From IMG/VR virus record IMGVR_UViG_3300044719_000253, positions 1 to 64,000 of that record: 64,000 nucleotides of DNA. One strand, given 5' to 3'. Every line of letters begins with the position of its first letter. Position 1 is the stretch's first letter. Positions 23,020 to 47,216 of this stretch are shown here, one piece after another. A program made the position numbers and the translations under genes. Under the pieces are notes generated by a model. The model was not told the DNA's origin and did no database searches. It worked only from the letters and a program-made list of their open reading frames with translations. Source of the DNA: a virus (lineage: Duplodnaviria > Caudoviricetes).

Positions 23020-24684
23020 TTAGCCCATCAGAGCATCGTTGATGAGGTCATGCGTGATGGTGGGACGAGTTTGTTTCACCCCCATCATTTCGAACCGCAC
23101 CGGACCATGGTCCATCAACCCTTGCAACACTTGCATGAACCCGGCGGACAGGGTCAGGCGTGCAGCAGCATTGTGGTAGGTGATGGTGGTCTGGGCCAAC
23201 TGCTCTTGCGTTTTGGCACGGAACGAATCGTGTTCGGCGCGCTGCATTGGCGACGTGGCATAACCACGACTTTTCATCTGCGGAGCGAACTGACTGTCTT
23301 GATAACGGTTGGCATCGTCCACCGTTAAGTGACTGTGATTCAGCGCTGCGAGGAAATCAATCTCGCGGGTATCATGCTTGACGGCCTTGTCATCCTCGGT
23401 TTCCTGGAACGTGCCGATTTGGACGAGGGTGTTCGACAATGAGCCAATGCGCCATGGTTTCTGCATGAACGAAGCCCGGGTGAATTCCGCACCCATGTTG
23501 CCGTTCAACATCAACGATGCGCAATCCACGATCAGCGTAGTCACTTCGTGTTTTCCTTTCGCCGCTTCTGCCCACATCGAAAGCGTGTCATTGACGGTCG
23601 GGTTCATCAACATATCGAACGAGATCAAATGGCCACGGCCGATCATTTCGTTCAGCGTCTGAGCAAACCCCGGGGCACTAGGGTAGTCACCTTTAATGCG
23701 CTGCAATGCCGCAAAATCACTCCAAGTCTGCGTGCCATACATCGACTCGAACTTCTTACTCCAGAGCCCAGCCCGCATGAATGACGACACCATCAGTGCC
23801 GCTAGAGTCGGTGGCACCAATACCGTCCCGCACTGAATGACGTAGCGGATATCTGTCACCACGAATTCAGGGATGTAGTACGGCGTATCAGGCACCCACG
23901 GACGATCCGGCGCGGATTGTTCCGGCATATAGCGAAAATCGATATAACCGGAAACCGTGATGAGTTCGACCGGATCGAGCATCATGCTCAATGTGGATTG
24001 CCGACTACTGTGCGGGATCGATGACAACGTCAGCGTGATGTCGTTGCGCACCGGTTGACCAAAAACATCCGCGATGGGTGCCGCATCAAACGTATAATCG
24101 ACTTTGAACTCATTCCCAACACGTTCCGCTTCGACGAAATCGGGCAACATCTTCTTCACATCGGCGGCCTCTTTCGCGCTATGAATCCGCTCGAATTCCG
24201 CCCGGTTGTCTGCCGCATTCAACAGATGGTTGATGATCTCGCGGCACCTGGACAGATCGTTGTAATCGATCGGAAAAGGCTCGACTAACCCCAACGCGAT
24301 CGTCGATTTGGTATCCGACGCTTCCCCGAAGGCTTGGGCGATAATCGGCTGATTGTTGGGATGGTTCAGGTACTGGTAAATCGAATTGCCGAGGTTGACG
24401 TGTTTGATGATGACTTCGCTCTTATACGGCAGATACACCGACACGTACACCTTGCCAGTTTCCGGATCTGGGTAGCGCAGCAACAGCACCTTTTTCGGCG
24501 AGGGGACGTTGTGGTGGAAATCCAGTTCCAAGGTGGCGATCGCTACCTGGAAAGCGTTCTGGTATTCAGCGGCGAACCGTTGCGCCACCTCGAACAACAC
24601 GTTCAGGTCAGACGAGGCTTCATTGGATGACGTCGAGCCATAACGACGGAAATTGCGGTCAGCGCCAAAGAAATTGTTTTGCAT
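23020..24684 (-). CDS. phiKZ major capsid protein (gp120)-like divergent paralog
   Basis: DVFGQPVRNDI, VSGYIDF, YIPEFVVTDI, IVD.A..M.NG, DTREIDFLAALN match my recollection of phiKZ-like MCP motifs; shorter than the ~750-aa MCP. Confidence 0.5.
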   Translation of the reverse strand: MQNNFFGADRNFRRYGSTSSNEASSDLNVLFEVAQRFAAEYQNAFQVAIATLELDFHHNVPSPKKVLLLRYPDPETGKVYVSVYLPYKSEVIIKHVNLGNSIYQYLNHPNNQPIIAQAFGEASDTKSTIALGLVEPFPIDYNDLSRCREIINHLLNAADNRAEFERIHSAKEAADVKKMLPDFVEAERVGNEFKVDYTFDAAPIADVFGQPVRNDITLTLSSIPHSSRQSTLSMMLDPVELITVSGYIDFRYMPEQSAPDRPWVPDTPYYIPEFVVTDIRYVIQCGTVLVPPTLAALMVSSFMRAGLWSKKFESMYGTQTWSDFAALQRIKGDYPSAPGFAQTLNEMIGRGHLISFDMLMNPTVNDTLSMWAEAAKGKHEVTTLIVDCASLMLNGNMGAEFTRASFMQKPWRIGSLSNTLVQIGTFQETEDDKAVKHDTREIDFLAALNHSHLTVDDANRYQDSQFAPQMKSRGYATSPMQRAEHDSFRAKTQEQLAQTTITYHNAAARLTLSAGFMQVLQGLMDHGPVRFEMMGVKQTRPTITHDLINDALMG

Positions 24685-41062: not shown

Positions 41063-42610
41063 TTACGCTACTGCGGCGACAGCATCGACCGATTGCGCGA
41101 ACGCCAAACGATTCGCCGCTTTGTCGATAGCACCTTTCTGCGCATTGGCGCGGGTGTCATCGAACGATTGACGCCAGTCACGATAGCCCTTGTCGAGCCA
41201 GCGACGGTGTCCAGGACCCGGCACGAACATCTCGTAGAGACTGTTCGATACCAGGGCGTCGAAGGTTTCGAGTTCACCGTTGTCGTTTTCACGATTACGG
41301 ATCAACCCCGACAGCGACTTCTTACCCAGGTCCGACTTCGGTTCCTTGAGCACGCGTTCCCACGATTCGCAGCGTTTCGCGATCGTCTTCATGCTGAAGC
41401 TCAGTTTGTCACGGGAACCTTCGTTGGTGATGCCGGCACCCATGCCGAGCAGGAAGTTATTGGTGGAGAACTTGTGGTCCACCACCGCTGCCCGCACGAC
41501 GGGTTCGAAAGTGCTGACGTTCATGCCGTCACCATACAGTGCCCCGATGCATGGGGGCAGGTCTTGGTAACCAGCCGCGTTCACGGTTGTGCCGAAGATG
41601 TCCTTCAGCCAGCCGAGCACTTGTGGCAACTTCTTCTTGGGGATGCCCGAATCCGGACGGATGACCAAACGGCCACCCGAGTTTTCGATTTCCACCTTGA
41701 AGCCAGCGACGTACACCGTGACGAAACGTTCATCGTCGTAGGTATCAGGCACCGTCGAGATCACCGGGATACCGATGCCGCGTTTGCTACGCTCGACCAC
41801 CGCGTTCAAGCGCCGCATCACCATCTGCATGCCGCCGAAATCGTCACGCGTTGCCGCGTCCGAGTTCAGGCAGACCGTCGTGTGTTCCGTGGCTTCCACC
41901 GAGCTGGTGTAGGCCTTGGGCGTGTTGTAGAGCGTCTTGATGTAACGATTGGCGCGACCACAATCACTGCCCAGGAACAGCATCGCGTGTGCAATGCCTT
42001 TCAGGACGGGGGTTTCATCTGGACCATCTGCACCACGATCACCGAAGTTGTGGATCAGATATTCCAGCATGTTGATGTTACCACCGGACAGGAGTACGTA
42101 GTACGCCATAGTGGTGAACATGTAGCGGCAGATGGTGGCCGTATAGGTCATCGACCACGACACCGACTGGATCACTGGCTCGAAGTACGGGACCAACCAC
42201 GCAGTGTGGTCATCGTCTTCGTTGGTCACCAGCAGAATCGGCGTCTGGGGCTTAACCACACGACCTTCTTCAACCCCGAACATGGTCAGAGGAATCCGAC
42301 CGCCGTAGGTGCGAAGGATGTACTCCCAGCCTTCGCGGTTGAAGTGATAGCCCTGCTCGGTAATTTCGACTTCTGCTTCGTCGATCATCCATTGTTCGAG
42401 ACGCGCCGTGGCGAACACGTGAGCGATGAACGTTTGTCCGGCGGCCACGATGTCGTCCGTGATCAGCGCGCCGTTGTCGTCGAACAGCGGTTTACGCGGC
42501 ACCACAGCTGAAACCAGCTGCTTCACACCAAAGGGAATTTCTTCCCAGTGGGCAAATTTGTAGGTGTCGCACCAGAGGATGATGTTGAAGGGTTTTACGA
42601 GTTCCAGCAT
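41063..42610 (-). CDS. nadV: nicotinamide phosphoribosyltransferase (Nampt)
   Basis: DTYKFAH, HNFGDRG, SVEATEH, VPDTYD, RPDSG, YGDG, GMGAG, FSMK, KKSLSG. Confidence 0.92.
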   Translation of the reverse strand: MLELVKPFNIILWCDTYKFAHWEEIPFGVKQLVSAVVPRKPLFDDNGALITDDIVAAGQTFIAHVFATARLEQWMIDEAEVEITEQGYHFNREGWEYILRTYGGRIPLTMFGVEEGRVVKPQTPILLVTNEDDDHTAWLVPYFEPVIQSVSWSMTYTATICRYMFTTMAYYVLLSGGNINMLEYLIHNFGDRGADGPDETPVLKGIAHAMLFLGSDCGRANRYIKTLYNTPKAYTSSVEATEHTTVCLNSDAATRDDFGGMQMVMRRLNAVVERSKRGIGIPVISTVPDTYDDERFVTVYVAGFKVEIENSGGRLVIRPDSGIPKKKLPQVLGWLKDIFGTTVNAAGYQDLPPCIGALYGDGMNVSTFEPVVRAAVVDHKFSTNNFLLGMGAGITNEGSRDKLSFSMKTIAKRCESWERVLKEPKSDLGKKSLSGLIRNRENDNGELETFDALVSNSLYEMFVPGPGHRRWLDKGYRDWRQSFDDTRANAQKGAIDKAANRLAFAQSVDAVAAVA

Positions 42611-42698
42611 GATAATTGGCTCCCAATTATTTACTTCACCGGTAAGGGACCGGCAACCCTCATGGCATCTGCCACTAATCTGTACTGCTGCTTGTTAC

Positions 42699-43826
42699 TT
42701 ACGCCGTGAAGAAATCCACGATGTCGTTGTGGTCGTCCCACATCTTGACACGACCGCTGATGATGTCGTACTTAGGGATCCAGCGGATCCCGCCATTCGG
42801 CAACGTCGGATGGGCGGCATCGTCACCACCGTTGGCACGGGGGAACTTACCGTCACGCGCTTCGATCTTGATGTACACGCCCAGCGTCGACTTCGGTACC
42901 GAAGACAAAGTCCGGCCCGGGTGATCGAACAGATGGGTTTGTTGGACGCAGTTACGGATTGTTTGTTCCGGCACCCGCAAGTTGGTCTCTTCGAACAGTT
43001 CCCGAATGGCGGTGTTAAACGCCGTTTCGTTCGTGTTCTTGTGACCACCTGGCAAAGCGACTTGCCCATAACCGAGTTCCCCGGCCCGGGTCACGGTCAG
43101 GATATGGCCGGCGCATTCCACGATAGCGTCACCGCACATGACATTCAACGCTTCCGGGTACGGATAGTTCTTGAACTTCTCCGGTTCCGTGTGCGTCAAA
43201 TAGTACCAGTCACGCTGCAACGGCTCGTTGAACTGGTGACCGTCGCGCAGGTAGTCGTACATCTCGGGGACCAAATGGTCTTGGAGACGCAGACCGCCCG
43301 GTGCAGTTTGCGAATGACGGAACCACAGCTCGCGCAGCCGTGTCGCATCGATGTCTTCGACCTTCCCCACGTCCTTGGTCTTCCACTGCGGGAAGGAGTT
43401 CATGTAGTAGGTCGATTCATCCTTGTCGGTACCGTACAGCGTGATCCGATCGGGATGGATACCGACTTGCTCGGCGTAGACTTCAGCATTCTGGTACACC
43501 CGCATCTTCCACCGTTCCTCGTTGTAGAGGGTGTCGTTCAGTGGCACGACCATGAATTGCCCATTCGGTTTGATCCGTTCGAGCACCTTAGTCATGAGCA
43601 TGGCACGGATGGCGTACTCGTGCGGGTTTTTCTTGGACACGCAACGATTCGCCGAACCGATCATGACCAGCAGATAGTCATTCTCAGCGGCCATGATGCG
43701 CAGGGTACGTTCATGCTGACGATGGATGAACGAGAAACGCCCGATCATCACACCCAACTTGGGCTTGGAAACAAATACTTCTGGTGCAGCGTGTTGCATT
43801 TTTCGACTCCCGAAAAATAAGCGCAT
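42699..43826 (-). CDS. nadM: bifunctional NMN adenylyltransferase / ADP-ribose pyrophosphatase (NadM-Nudix)
   Basis: IGRF..IH..H, IGSAN...KNP; Nudix box ALPGGH..NET..TAIRELFEET; GGDDA; DDH. Confidence 0.9.
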   Translation of the reverse strand: MRLFFGSRKMQHAAPEVFVSKPKLGVMIGRFSFIHRQHERTLRIMAAENDYLLVMIGSANRCVSKKNPHEYAIRAMLMTKVLERIKPNGQFMVVPLNDTLYNEERWKMRVYQNAEVYAEQVGIHPDRITLYGTDKDESTYYMNSFPQWKTKDVGKVEDIDATRLRELWFRHSQTAPGGLRLQDHLVPEMYDYLRDGHQFNEPLQRDWYYLTHTEPEKFKNYPYPEALNVMCGDAIVECAGHILTVTRAGELGYGQVALPGGHKNTNETAFNTAIRELFEETNLRVPEQTIRNCVQQTHLFDHPGRTLSSVPKSTLGVYIKIEARDGKFPRANGGDDAAHPTLPNGGIRWIPKYDIISGRVKMWDDHNDIVDFFTA

Positions 43827-44288: not shown

Positions 44289-45359
44289 TTACTCCCAGTC
44301 CAACGTGGTGGACACTTTGTTTTCGACAGGGGCCGAGGTGACTTGACGGCTTTCTTGCAGACCAAGCGCGTGTGCCATCCACGGGAACGGGTTGGCTTGC
44401 GGTTGGAAGATCGTACCCAGGCCGAGCTTGCTCGCCATGCGATTCGCCACGTGTTGCAGCAAATAGCTGTACTGGTGCGCCGGCACAGTGTCTTCGGGCA
44501 ACGCCGTAGCGATAGCGTGGGCCGCTTCCAGCGATACAGCTTCCTTAAACCTCAGTCTGATCAAATCAACCAGCTCCGTGGTCCAGATCTGCGGGTTCTC
44601 GTTCCTGATCGCTTGGATCACTTCGAGACCGAATTCGACTTGGGTTTGCTGATCACGCAGCATCAGCGAGAATTGCTGGACCAGATCCGGAAGTTCGTTT
44701 TGCAGACCATGCGCGAGAATGCGGGTAAAGTCGACAATCGAGAACAAACCCTTCATCGCGCAAGTGTACGTGACCAGCTCAAGTACGAACACGCCCGCAT
44801 CCACCGAAGTGTCGGTACGGAACTTTGGATCGCCCAACACATTTGCAGTCAGCTGCGCGTAGCGTTGTTTGTCATGGAACGATGTCGGTTGGTTAGCCGG
44901 ATCGAGCAACACGTCTTCGTTCAGCTTGAGCCGTTCGACGATATGAGCATAAGCGTGCGGTACGAGCGCTTCTTCGAAGCCCTGCCGCAGGATATACTGA
45001 CGTGCTTCCGGCGCCGTGATATGACGATAGATATTCATGGCCAAACTGCCGGCGGCGCCAACGGTTTGCACCATCGCGCCCACGGTCCGTTCGATACGTT
45101 TCAGTTCGAACGGCGTGATCATACCAGCCTCGATCTGCGCCGCGTCGGTATCCATCTTGTACTCTTGCGGCATCCAGTGGTTGTTGCAGCTGTCATTGTA
45201 CATCTGCCAGGCCCACTTGTACTTGAACGGCACTAACTGGTTAACGTCGGTGGTCGCATTGATCATGCGCTTGTCCGACGCATTCACACGCTGCGAGGTG
45301 TCGACATTCGGATCGACCGGTTGGACTGATACTGCTTCTTCATCAAAATTCAACTGCAT
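44289..45359 (-). CDS. nrdB: ribonucleotide reductase beta subunit homolog lacking most metal ligands
   Basis: DVNQLVPFKYKWAW, NHWMPQE, YRHITAPE.RQY.LRQ.FEEA and NPFPWM are clear NrdB; ligand motifs are degenerate (see findings). Confidence 0.9.
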   Translation of the reverse strand: MQLNFDEEAVSVQPVDPNVDTSQRVNASDKRMINATTDVNQLVPFKYKWAWQMYNDSCNNHWMPQEYKMDTDAAQIEAGMITPFELKRIERTVGAMVQTVGAAGSLAMNIYRHITAPEARQYILRQGFEEALVPHAYAHIVERLKLNEDVLLDPANQPTSFHDKQRYAQLTANVLGDPKFRTDTSVDAGVFVLELVTYTCAMKGLFSIVDFTRILAHGLQNELPDLVQQFSLMLRDQQTQVEFGLEVIQAIRNENPQIWTTELVDLIRLRFKEAVSLEAAHAIATALPEDTVPAHQYSYLLQHVANRMASKLGLGTIFQPQANPFPWMAHALGLQESRQVTSAPVENKVSTTLDWE

Positions 45360-45367
45360 GATATTCC

Positions 45368-45583
45368 CTAGTTTTTAATAAACAGATCGATGTCTTTTTC
45401 TTCCCATAAGCCATTGTCGCATTGATACCAAGGGTTGTCACGATAGGTATCGACTCGCGTACATTGGTGGCTTAAAATGAAGGTGGCTTTTCTTTTATCT
45501 TGCGTGTAATTTCGATAAATTGTAAACACAATGAGCAGTACGCTAACGGCAGCGCACCATTTAGCTACCTGTTTATCTTTCAT
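45368..45583 (-). CDS. small membrane-anchored protein, HxC...YxCxxG paralog 1
   Basis: TM segment plus HQC...YQCDNG. Confidence 0.65.
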   Translation of the reverse strand: MKDKQVAKWCAAVSVLLIVFTIYRNYTQDKRKATFILSHQCTRVDTYRDNPWYQCDNGLWEEKDIDLFIKN

Positions 45584-45831
45584 GAACCCGTTTCCTTTCG
45601 CAGATCGTTTTCCAGATGCAGACCATTGTCACACCGGTACACGGATTGGGATGGTTGACCAACCCGTCCCAACTCACGGCAGTGGTGTTGATCCAGATAC
45701 TGAATCAGATTGCGATCTTGATAGAGATGATGCTGGTAAAAACCATACACTACTCCACCAAAGAACGCAATCAAAATCCACTGAATGACCAAGTCACGGT
45801 AATTGAACCAAAAACGTCGAAAGAGATTCAT
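45580..45831 (-). CDS. small membrane-anchored protein, paralog 2
   Basis: TM segment plus HHC...YRCDNG. Confidence 0.65.
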   Translation of the reverse strand: MNLFRRFWFNYRDLVIQWILIAFFGGVVYGFYQHHLYQDRNLIQYLDQHHCRELGRVGQPSQSVYRCDNGLHLENDLRKETGS

Positions 45832-46130
45832 TTCAGTGCTTTCTCACGCAGTTCGAAGTCGAGCATCCGCCCGTCAGCGCACTGGTACACCGCACGCTTC
45901 TTGCGATCGCCACCCATGAAACTGTCGATCTTGCATTGGTGCCCATCGATATACGTCAACACTTTTCGGTCGTCTTCTTTACCGACTTTGTTGGACCAGA
46001 CGACGAGCCCCAGCACAACCACCAGAATGATCAAGAGAACCACCGCTCCAGCTGGAGTGAGGCTATCAGAACCGCTGGAGCTGCCGGCAAAGAAGAAATC
46101 ACTGCTGTCACTATCATTATCCCAGGACAT
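45828..46130 (-). CDS. small membrane-anchored protein, paralog 3
   Basis: TM segment plus HQC...YQCADG. Confidence 0.65.
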   Translation of the reverse strand: MSWDNDSDSSDFFFAGSSSGSDSLTPAGAVVLLIILVVVLGLVVWSNKVGKEDDRKVLTYIDGHQCKIDSFMGGDRKKRAVYQCADGRMLDFELREKALK

Positions 46131-46148: not shown

Positions 46149-47216
46149 TTAAACCACCATTGGCGGAACAGGTGTTTTCAGAATGTGGGGATCATATCCT
46201 TCAAGCTTGAAGTCGTTGGGTTCCACCCACTTGAGCCAATTGACGGCTTCCTCCGTCGCTTTGTCTTTACCGACACGAATGACCAGTTCCTCATAAGTCG
46301 GTACACGGGGGTCGATATGAAGCGTCGGCGCTTCCTTGGCCTCGTTCGATAACAGCTCGGTTAGGTACTCTACTTGATTTTCATAAACGTGGGCGTCACC
46401 GATGAAATACGAAAGCTTCTTCGGTTTATAACCGGTCAGGTGGCCGACGATATGCATGAACAGCGCAGCTTCCGCCATGTTGAACGGTGCGCCGAGGCCC
46501 AGATCATTGCTGCGGATGTAGAGCACCATGTTCAGTTCTTTGGTGTAGCTGTCGGGCAGGAACTGATACAACAGGTGGCAAGACGGCAGCGCGACTTGAT
46601 CCAGCAAAGCCGGGTCCCATCCGTGGAACAGAATACGGCGGGAATCTGGGTTGTTGATGATGGTCCGCACGCAGTCGCCGAGCTGGTCGATTGATTTGTG
46701 AAAAATCACCCCTTGTGGTTTGCCATCTTCCTCGAAAGTGTGACCGATAGGGAACCAGCCATCCGCATTAATTTTGGCGACGATAGCAGTATAACGGTCA
46801 AACTCCTCCGTCGCAGCATCCATCGCCGGAGATTGGATGACCTTGTAACCATCCCACTCGCGCCAGGGTTTACCGTACACCGGACCGACATCGTCGACGC
46901 CTTTACGGAAAGGATTCGACAGCCATGCGTTCGGCGTGACGCCATGTTCATTGGCGTTTTGATCCCACACTTTGCAGTTGAGGGCGCGGAAGTCTGCTGC
47001 GCTGGTCAGAGCACGCAGAAAACCACAGGCTTCACCCTTAACTGGCATGAACGCCAGTTTCTTGAGGGTAGTAGCCGGAAATGCTTTTGACACGTCGGGG
47101 AACACCATGAATTCCCCAGTGGTTTTGTAAGCGTTAACACCCGTGCGATTGGGGCGCAAGTTATCCGGCACCATCACACGCTGGAGTAATGCTTTGTATT
47201 GATCAGGTTGGTTCAT
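46149..47216 (-). CDS. thyA: thymidylate synthase
   Basis: RTGV, GPVYG..WR.W, DQL, SRR, ALPSCH, RSNDLGLGAPFN, GDAHVYENQ; Asn in PFN indicates dUMP specificity. Confidence 0.95.
   Translation of the reverse strand: MNQPDQYKALLQRVMVPDNLRPNRTGVNAYKTTGEFMVFPDVSKAFPATTLKKLAFMPVKGEACGFLRALTSAADFRALNCKVWDQNANEHGVTPNAWLSNPFRKGVDDVGPVYGKPWREWDGYKVIQSPAMDAATEEFDRYTAIVAKINADGWFPIGHTFEEDGKPQGVIFHKSIDQLGDCVRTIINNPDSRRILFHGWDPALLDQVALPSCHLLYQFLPDSYTKELNMVLYIRSNDLGLGAPFNMAEAALFMHIVGHLTGYKPKKLSYFIGDAHVYENQVEYLTELLSNEAKEAPTLHIDPRVPTYEELVIRVGKDKATEEAVNWLKWVEPNDFKLEGYDPHILKTPVPPMVV

Follow-up and report, generated by a model that had tools for sequence, protein, structure and literature searches.

Why should a phage keep a small subunit of ribonucleotide reductase (RNR) that has lost nearly all of its metal ligands? 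All de novo supply of DNA precursors comes from RNR, a classic drug target, and the question is raised by a gene at positions 44289 to 45359 (minus strand) of a caudoviral DNA stretch. This stretch, hereafter the window, comprises the first 64,000 nucleotides of the IMG/VR record IMGVR_UViG_3300044719_000253 (G000), which is 226 kb long and 83% complete. The product of the gene, P0001, resembles the beta subunit (R2, or NrdB) of class I RNR but is not a functional NrdB: a full set of metal ligands, the relay tyrosine and a cognate large (alpha, NrdA) subunit were each looked for, and all three are missing. Instead, P0001 is probably a non-catalytic, or "radical-dead", beta that docks on the NrdA of the host and is unable to start turnover. 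The direct results concern sequence features, selection, gene content and distribution, and from these we infer binding and its consequence.

Metal site, radical relay and docking tail

The open reading frame (ORF) of P0001 is intact and runs from an ATG at 45359 to a stop codon at 44289-44291. A Shine-Dalgarno-like AGGGA immediately follows the stop codon of the upstream gene and precedes the ATG by about 7 nt. The protein matches Pfam Ribonuc_red_sm (PF00268) with E 1e-40 over model positions 2-281 of 281, and its nearest solved relatives are the R2c of Chlamydia trachomatis (1SYY, 2ANI, 4D8F) and 6Y2N (E 1e-62 to 5e-64). The AlphaFold2 model, built on a 37-sequence alignment, is all-helical with a predicted local distance difference test (pLDDT) score of 81.8; residues 1-22 and 337-356 are disordered. 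It superposes on C. trachomatis NrdB with template-modelling (TM) scores of 0.77-0.89. Thus, both the Pfam match and the superposition indicate the ferritin-like, all-helical R2 fold of a class I RNR beta. In sequence, P0001 is closest to NrdB of the Burkholderiales/Chlamydia type, with about 41% identity to the Collimonas and Massilia proteins. Its score of 300.9 bits against NCBIfam NF005550 falls just below the cut-off of 309, and P0006, a member of the same clade of degenerate proteins, exceeds this cut-off at 404 bits, so misannotation as NrdB is expected for some members of the clade.

The ligand positions were read from an alignment with bona fide NrdB of Burkholderiales (Collimonas, Massilia and others) and with solved R2c sequences, and the coordinates were checked. 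The gene and its parts, with the canonical residues for comparison, are:

44289-45359, minus strand: pseudo-R2 gene encoding P0001, a 356-amino-acid protein of R2/NrdB fold (Pfam, solved-relative and AlphaFold2 matches)
45336-45359, minus strand: N-terminal motif MQLNFDEE (L-x-[WF]-[DE]-[DE]), with M1, L3 and E8 invariant in the clade
45162-45290, minus strand: residues 24-66, comprising the extended N-terminal arm, helix A and the W-x-P-x-E loop with Trp62 and Glu66
45060-45062, minus strand: Val100 at metal ligand 1, canonically Asp/Glu (FFVTAD to AMVQTV), in a helix B that is fully relaxed in the clade
45000-45029, minus strand: YRHITAPEAR, the B-C loop and the start of helix C, conserved with canonical NrdB
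44949-44975, minus strand: EEALVPHAY (from EEAIHTHAY), with ligand 2, canonically Glu, kept as E130, the sole surviving ligand; ligand 3, canonically His, replaced by V133; and Y137 at the radical-Tyr position
44739-44756, minus strand: MKGLFS (from MEGLFF), with ligand 4, canonically Glu, replaced by the clade-invariant K203, and S207 in place of a conserved Phe
44640-44657, minus strand: RDQQTQ (from RDESMH), with ligand 5, canonically Glu, replaced by Q237; ligand 6, canonically His, replaced by Q240; and R235-D236 kept
44292-44351, minus strand: disordered C-terminal tail, residues 337-356, with N347, the clade-invariant K348 and the terminal T-T-L-D-W-E

P0001 therefore keeps one of the six metal ligands. 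A preliminary description of the window had claimed that five of the six were replaced, and every motif change that it listed is present in this alignment. Its further claim, that the relay Tyr is lost while the N-terminal segment and the LDWE tail are kept, is borne out as well. The relay Tyr (E. coli Y356, in the motif E-Y-Q) is N347 in P0001, where IEYQ has become VENK, and it is missing from every member of the clade. Also retained are Y137, W62 (E. coli W48), E66 (E. coli E52), the equivalent of D237 and the R235-D236 pair; in E. coli, E52 is a residue of the alpha/beta interface (PMC11482829). At the C-terminus, L353 and W355 do not vary across an alignment of 37 sequences, pseudo and canonical, and at the level of motifs P0001 appears to possess the C-terminal alpha-binding peptide. 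Taken together, the alignment supports the view that P0001 would be unable to build a dimetal-tyrosyl cofactor or to pass a radical through the canonical relay.

The combination of a lost relay and an intact tail has a precedent. The beta tail of E. coli RNR accounts for 26 of the 44 direct contacts between alpha and beta, and it also contains Y356, part of the radical path (PMC11482829). The vaccinia R2 (F4) forms complexes with host R1, and efficient virus replication needs these complexes; its relay-Tyr mutant Y300F is dominant negative but loses both R1 binding and this phenotype once the last seven residues are removed (PMC2900304). P0001 naturally combines the absent relay Tyr and intact tail of Y300F, which is the basis for reading it as a protein that docks but does not turn over.

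The N-terminal motif L-x-[WF]-[DE]-[DE] (MQLNFDEE in P0001, MLSWDDE in another example) mirrors the alpha-binding L-x-W-[DE] tail. It is found in 93 of 110 canonical relatives, in 10 of 12 clade members and in many distant degenerate proteins, with P0011-P0120, P0186 and P0245 among the carriers. We know of no description of this motif. It might be a second alpha-docking peptide or an autoregulatory one.

The clade, its distant relatives and selection

Relatives of P0001 were gathered by a word-index search and a full profile search. P0002 and P0003 are 75% and 69% identical to P0001, respectively, while P0004, P0005, P0006, P0007, P0009, P0010, P0121, P0122 and the protein of locus L009 are 42-47% identical. 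Most of the close relatives sit on contigs of 270-320 kb, and a protein identical to P0001 occurs on a contig of 269 kb. The degenerate pattern of P0001 recurs, slightly varied, in at least nine other non-identical clade proteins, and it is therefore neither chance nor sequencing error. A branch with 100/100 support sets the degenerate proteins apart in a maximum-likelihood tree, and their own branches are long relative to those of the canonical proteins. Four changes are common to all members: the loss of ligand His-3, the replacement of the ligand-4 Glu by Lys, the loss of the relay Tyr and the replacement of the adjoining Gln by Lys. The other ligands decay stepwise across the clade, with P0006 and P0121 still holding four, and the radical-Tyr position varies, being His in P0007 and Phe in the L009 protein.

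Ligand loss, long branches and the absence of nrdA could all be the marks of a neutral relic, an nrdB dying after nrdA was lost. This explanation is scarcely credible in view of the selection data. By the NG86 method, the ratio of nonsynonymous to synonymous substitution rates (dN/dS) is 0.12-0.19 in the three closest pairs of pseudo-R2 genes, although such ratios are only rough because synonymous sites are near saturation. In the same genomes it is similar for the neighbouring thymidylate kinase gene (Tmk, 0.09-0.22), and the NAMPT gene gives 0.08-0.14. In addition, the pseudo-R2 ORFs are intact in all clade members, some invariant residues are specific to the clade, and synteny is conserved among phages whose proteins are 44-75% identical; the homologues are not recent copies. 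P0001 is under purifying selection and is not decaying, the outcome sought by the dN/dS check proposed in the preliminary description, and neutral decay was rejected on these data.

The distribution of this selection along the protein was compared, site by site, between 10 clade members and about 120 canonical sequences. Within residues 24-66, 67% of the positions show the same unvarying residue in both groups, residues 111-130 are largely common to the clade and canonical NrdB, and E-x-K-x-x-T-T-L-x-W is preserved in the last 10 residues. By contrast, the clade has a completely relaxed helix B around ligand 1. Sixteen positions are invariant in the clade yet unlike the canonical residue; among the least conservative of them, K203, S207, D210 and H139 adjoin ligand positions in the sequence. 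A canonical arm, loop and tail beside a relaxed helix B is a pattern that fits a binding protein.

Loss of the ligands extends beyond this clade. The clade profile was searched against 1.8 billion cluster representatives; the best 150 matches and 16 proteins from the first search were considered, and the 84 representatives that cover all six ligand columns and the C-terminal helix were classified. Six ligands are present in 35 of these R2 representatives, five in none, and four or fewer in 49, proportions to be read with the preference of the clade profile for degenerate sequences in mind; the FastTree topology cannot establish the number of origins. All 49 ligand-poor representatives keep the equivalent of W48, and 36 of them carry a terminal motif of the L-x-W type. 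A Tyr anywhere in the tail zone, however, occurs in only 6 of the 49, against 31 of the 35 canonical proteins. The fillings of the old metal site differ widely and are often hydrophobic (for ligands 1-3, the radical site and ligands 4-6, K-S-V-W-N-G-Q in one case and Q-E-F-I-R-M-Q in another). Many degenerate R2 proteins carry N-terminal extensions of 100-370 amino acids that have no Pfam match, and the genomic contexts that are visible are phage-like. The ligand-poor lineages thus have in common their scaffold, their alpha-facing loop and their docking tail, but not the pocket, which argues for a binding function and not for new chemistry.

One group of R2-like proteins, 430-700 amino acids long, combines a long uncharacterised N-terminal extension with a retained G-L-G-x-x-x-W tail; its radical-Tyr position holds Trp, and ligands 4 and 6 are replaced by Asn and Gln, respectively (P0211-P0213, P0234, P0237, P0241, P0245, P0246, P0254, P0259, P0266 and P0268; loci L030 and L038).

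The preliminary description had also considered that the altered site might perform new radical chemistry. Such a metal-free or otherwise unusual reaction, akin to that of class Ie, would proceed through Tyr137 with Lys203, Glu130, His139 and Asp210. Tyr137, Trp62 and Asp236 are indeed kept, the clade has several invariant polar residues surrounding the former site, and a ligand-4 Lys is common to the class Ie R2 proteins (VPK/QSK; PMC11846895). Nevertheless, both ligand His are lost where class Ie keeps both, NrdI, NrdE/NrdA and the relay Tyr are all absent, the would-be radical Tyr is His or Phe in some clade members, and the other lineages fill the site with unrelated or hydrophobic residues. 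Moreover, wherever ligand 4 is Lys or Arg, ligand 2 is acidic (25 vs 0; Fisher p = 4e-8, not corrected for relatedness), which suggests that a buried, structural salt bridge has replaced the metals. The claim of new chemistry is accordingly given up as very improbable.

Gene content and the proposed partner of P0001

The G000 record holds a single R2 gene and has no match to the RNR large subunit (PF02867), which answers the check for a second nrdB or an nrdA that the preliminary description had called for. PF02867 is likewise absent from the other five records with a degenerate R2 (G001-G003, G006 and G007), of which G001-G003 and G007 are complete (direct terminal repeats, 100% by CheckV) and G006 is 70% complete. 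The R2 proteins of G006 and G007 are more distant degenerate forms. Hence the cognate NrdA that a functional NrdB would have is found neither in G000 nor in the complete genomes G001-G003 and G007. The class III enzyme (NrdD; PF13597) and NrdI (PF07972) were not found in G000 or in its complete relatives G001, G002 and G003. Because the phage has no RNR of its own, any RNR partner of P0001 must be that of the host.

Jumbo-phage records with a canonical NrdB show other arrangements. G005, G012 and G009 carry NrdA, which adjoins nrdB in G005 and G012. The complete records G008 (locus L035) and G013 (locus L010) encode a canonical NrdB, with all ligands, relay Tyr and tail, and no NrdA; they are apparently beta-only phages, with a beta that looks functional, and would need the large subunit of the host, as in the R2-only poxviruses. 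A bias towards R2 has long been noted for poxviruses and some phages (PMC2900304), and two phages with nrdB only have been described (PMC3653736).

From these observations, a plausible path leads from nrdAB to an nrdB alone that was paired with host alpha, and from there to a dead beta. P0001 would thus descend from a phage-borne NrdB of betaproteobacterial type that had adapted to host alpha after nrdA was lost, or where it was never present. In this process ordinary side chains would have taken the place of the dimetal site, Lys203 probably forming a salt bridge with Glu130, the last carboxylate, and the tail Tyr that hands the radical to alpha would have gone. Selection would have kept the fold, the alpha-facing Trp/Glu loop, the N-terminal arm and, most of all, the C-terminal docking peptide for the large subunit. 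P0001 would then fill the beta-binding site of host NrdA with no ability to start catalysis. The net effect might be a brake on synthesis of deoxynucleoside triphosphates (dNTPs), a beta-prime-like partnership with host beta, or a tether to phage nucleotide enzymes; we lean slightly towards a brake or modulator. A dominant-negative or regulatory beta had been the best hypothesis of the preliminary description, and the dead site, the purifying selection, the kept tail and the lack of a phage RNR favour it; the part that has to be dropped is the blocking of a phage RNR, since the phage has none.

The persistence of a dead-but-binding state across many lineages points towards a brake. It is also possible, by analogy with known defences, that damping RNR benefits a phage: the DRT2/4/9 defences fire on rises in dNTPs produced by phage NrdAB, and phages escape through mutations that impair RNR (bioRxiv 10.64898/2026.10.27.754916). 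Several points weigh on the other side. A phage with no RNR of its own should need that of the host for a genome of about 270 kb, so a pure inhibitor looks costly. The gene lies in a block that promotes synthesis (ThyA, Tmk, DHFR and NAD salvage), which argues equally for a helper or an adaptor, and the retained Tyr137, Trp62 and Asp236 could hint at a residual redox function. The Burkholderiales host is suggested only by the nearest canonical NrdB sequences, and both the binding of P0001 to host NrdA and its effect on activity are deduced from sequence.

A helper role is the core of the main rival, which we regard as rather unlikely. Here P0001 would be a beta-prime that heterodimerises with host NrdB, as Rnr4 does with Rnr2 and PfR4 with PfR2. 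The resulting alpha2-beta-beta-prime enzyme would be active, and the phage would stabilise, multiply or re-localise it. The known ligand-less R2 paralogues act in this way (PMC3824934), and the gene sits within a dNTP-synthesis block. The N-terminal arm and helix A are nearly identical to the canonical ones even though more than half of all residues have changed, as would be expected from contact with an unchanging host partner; these conserved segments may, however, face alpha instead. Beta-only phages such as G008 and G013 make the joining of phage beta to host subunits plausible. The phage genome itself encodes no canonical beta. Against the beta-prime model, R2 dimers are tight, so P0001 would need to co-fold with newly made host beta at a time when infection is probably shutting the host down.

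A role outside RNR biology is improbable. In this case the R2 scaffold and its terminal peptides would now engage a different protein of host or phage, with P0001 serving, for example, as a structural adaptor or as a decoy against defences. The extensions of 100-370 amino acids in many degenerate lineages make new partners plausible, and the R1 homologues of herpesviruses are viral pseudoenzymes of an RNR subunit with unrelated functions. Yet the conserved parts of P0001 are exactly those specific to RNR, the W48/E52 loop and the alpha-binding tail, and its neighbourhood is one of nucleotide metabolism.

A wider conjecture is offered only tentatively. Dead-but-docking betas may be widespread phage effectors, perhaps of more than one origin, that use the invariant beta-tail pocket of NrdA to throttle or re-wire dNTP synthesis in the host. 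Their purpose could be to hold dNTPs below the level that triggers defences such as DRT2, DRT4 and DRT9; alternatively, they could link host RNR to the dTMP enzymes of the phage. Peptide inhibitors exploit the same beta-tail pocket on the large subunit, and whole phage proteins that fill it with no catalysis would be natural protein ligands or regulators of bacterial RNR; to our knowledge, none have been described. This would bear on the dNTP supply of jumbo phages that have no RNR, and may link to the recent finding of defence systems that sense RNR-driven changes in dNTPs. No description of a phage RNR pseudoenzyme of this type was found in the searchable literature. Viral RNR surveys filter out sequences that lack W48, Y356 or ligands (PMC12918982). 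Since annotation pipelines call such proteins "ribonucleotide reductase subunit beta" and the surveys discard them, they have been both mislabelled and overlooked.

The gene order around pseudo-R2 is conserved: Tmk, ThyA and several small ORFs stand on one side, and a NUDIX/NMNAT-like gene and NAMPT on the other. A Band_7 gene follows pseudo-R2 in some relatives but was not found in this window, and NADAR and DHFR lie further on in the relatives. The features concerned, and one from elsewhere in the window, are:

41063-43826, minus strand: NAMPT-like gene (PF18127, PF04095) and a gene for a 375-amino-acid NUDIX-domain protein, adjoining pseudo-R2
45368-46130, minus strand: three tandem ORFs of 71, 83 and 100 amino acids, between ThyA and pseudo-R2
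46149-47216, minus strand: thymidylate synthase homologue of 355 amino acids, with inserts relative to the 266-position Pfam model
23020-24684, minus strand: nuclear-shell homologue of 554 amino acids (phrog_4795, E 4e-22)

The NUDIX-domain protein may be an NMNAT-Nudix fusion, and with the NAMPT-like gene it would make up a pair for NAD salvage; such pairs have been linked to counter-defence where NAD is depleted. In each product of the three small ORFs a single hydrophobic helix precedes a Cys ... Y-[QR]-C-[DA]-[ND]-G motif, and none has a Pfam match. In sequence the three look like paralogues, and relatives have three to four small ORFs at the same place (L021 8948-9989, L023 9036-9980). 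The thymidylate synthase at the same locus in the relative L021 is only about 33% identical, which suggests gene replacement.

The nuclear-shell homologue is only 23% identical to any deposited phage, and the phage is therefore taken to be a deep-branching, probably nucleus-forming jumbo phage. This label rests on the PHROG shell match, as PhuZ was not detected in G000 with the Pfam Tubulin model. A tblastn search of about 50,000 cultured or deposited phage records with the shell protein and variants of pseudo-R2 returned neither a close relative nor a cultured phage that carries a pseudo-beta. Among its matches were P. putida jumbo phages, which have NrdA and a two-piece R2 gene.

Comparison with known systems

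Among solved and annotated proteins, NrdB of the betaproteobacterial/Chlamydia type (NF005550, PRK07209; 1SYY/4D8F/4M1I, 6Y2N) shares with P0001 the fold, the N-terminal arm, the W-x-P-x-E loop, the R-D pair and the L-x-W-[DE] tail, and its class Ia members also have Tyr at the radical position. Unlike these proteins, P0001 has one of six ligands, no relay Tyr and no cognate nrdA in its genome. The Mn/Fe class Ic (R2c) was rejected, since it needs intact ligands, Glu at ligand 1 and a radical site that is not Tyr, whereas P0001 has Tyr and lacks the ligands. Membership of R2lox was likewise rejected.

Class Ie R2 proteins (NrdF VPK/QSK) resemble P0001 in the loss of carboxylate ligands, in the ligand-4 Lys and in the Tyr beside the site. 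However, they derive from class Ib NrdF, keep both ligand His while three carboxylates are replaced (VPK or QSK), need NrdI and NrdE, and keep the relay (PMC11846895), none of which is true of P0001. In P0001 both His are replaced (V133, Q240), neither PF07972 nor PF02867 is found in G000-G003, and of the class Ie substitutions only the ligand-4 Lys is shared. Class Ie was thus rejected, in agreement with the preliminary description, which had held the pattern to be different.

The vaccinia F4 mutant Y300F (Gammon et al. 2010, PMC2900304) and the R2-only poxviruses provide a viral small subunit acting on host R1, as proposed for P0001. As judged from sequence for the phage protein, both it and Y300F lack the relay Tyr and have an intact C-terminal R1-binding peptide. 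Y300F is, however, a laboratory mutant that harms the virus, while the state of P0001 is natural, ancient and selected, its metal site is gone as well, and its host is bacterial.

The beta-prime subunits, Rnr4 (Y4) of S. cerevisiae and the apicomplexan R2_e2/PfR4 (PMC3824934), share with P0001 an R2 fold with lost ligands, long branches and basic residues at ligand sites, and P0001 is, like them, a ligand-deficient R2 fold under selection. Rnr4 and PfR4 are cellular paralogues that stand beside a canonical beta and alpha, and they retain a function as subunits of the RNR complex, being heterodimer partners in an active enzyme. In contrast, P0001 is viral and orphan; its partner or partners would be those of the host, and a heterodimer is hypothetical. 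Overall, P0001 resembles the cellular beta-prime and the engineered dominant-negative R2, but is a natural, orphan and phage-borne form.

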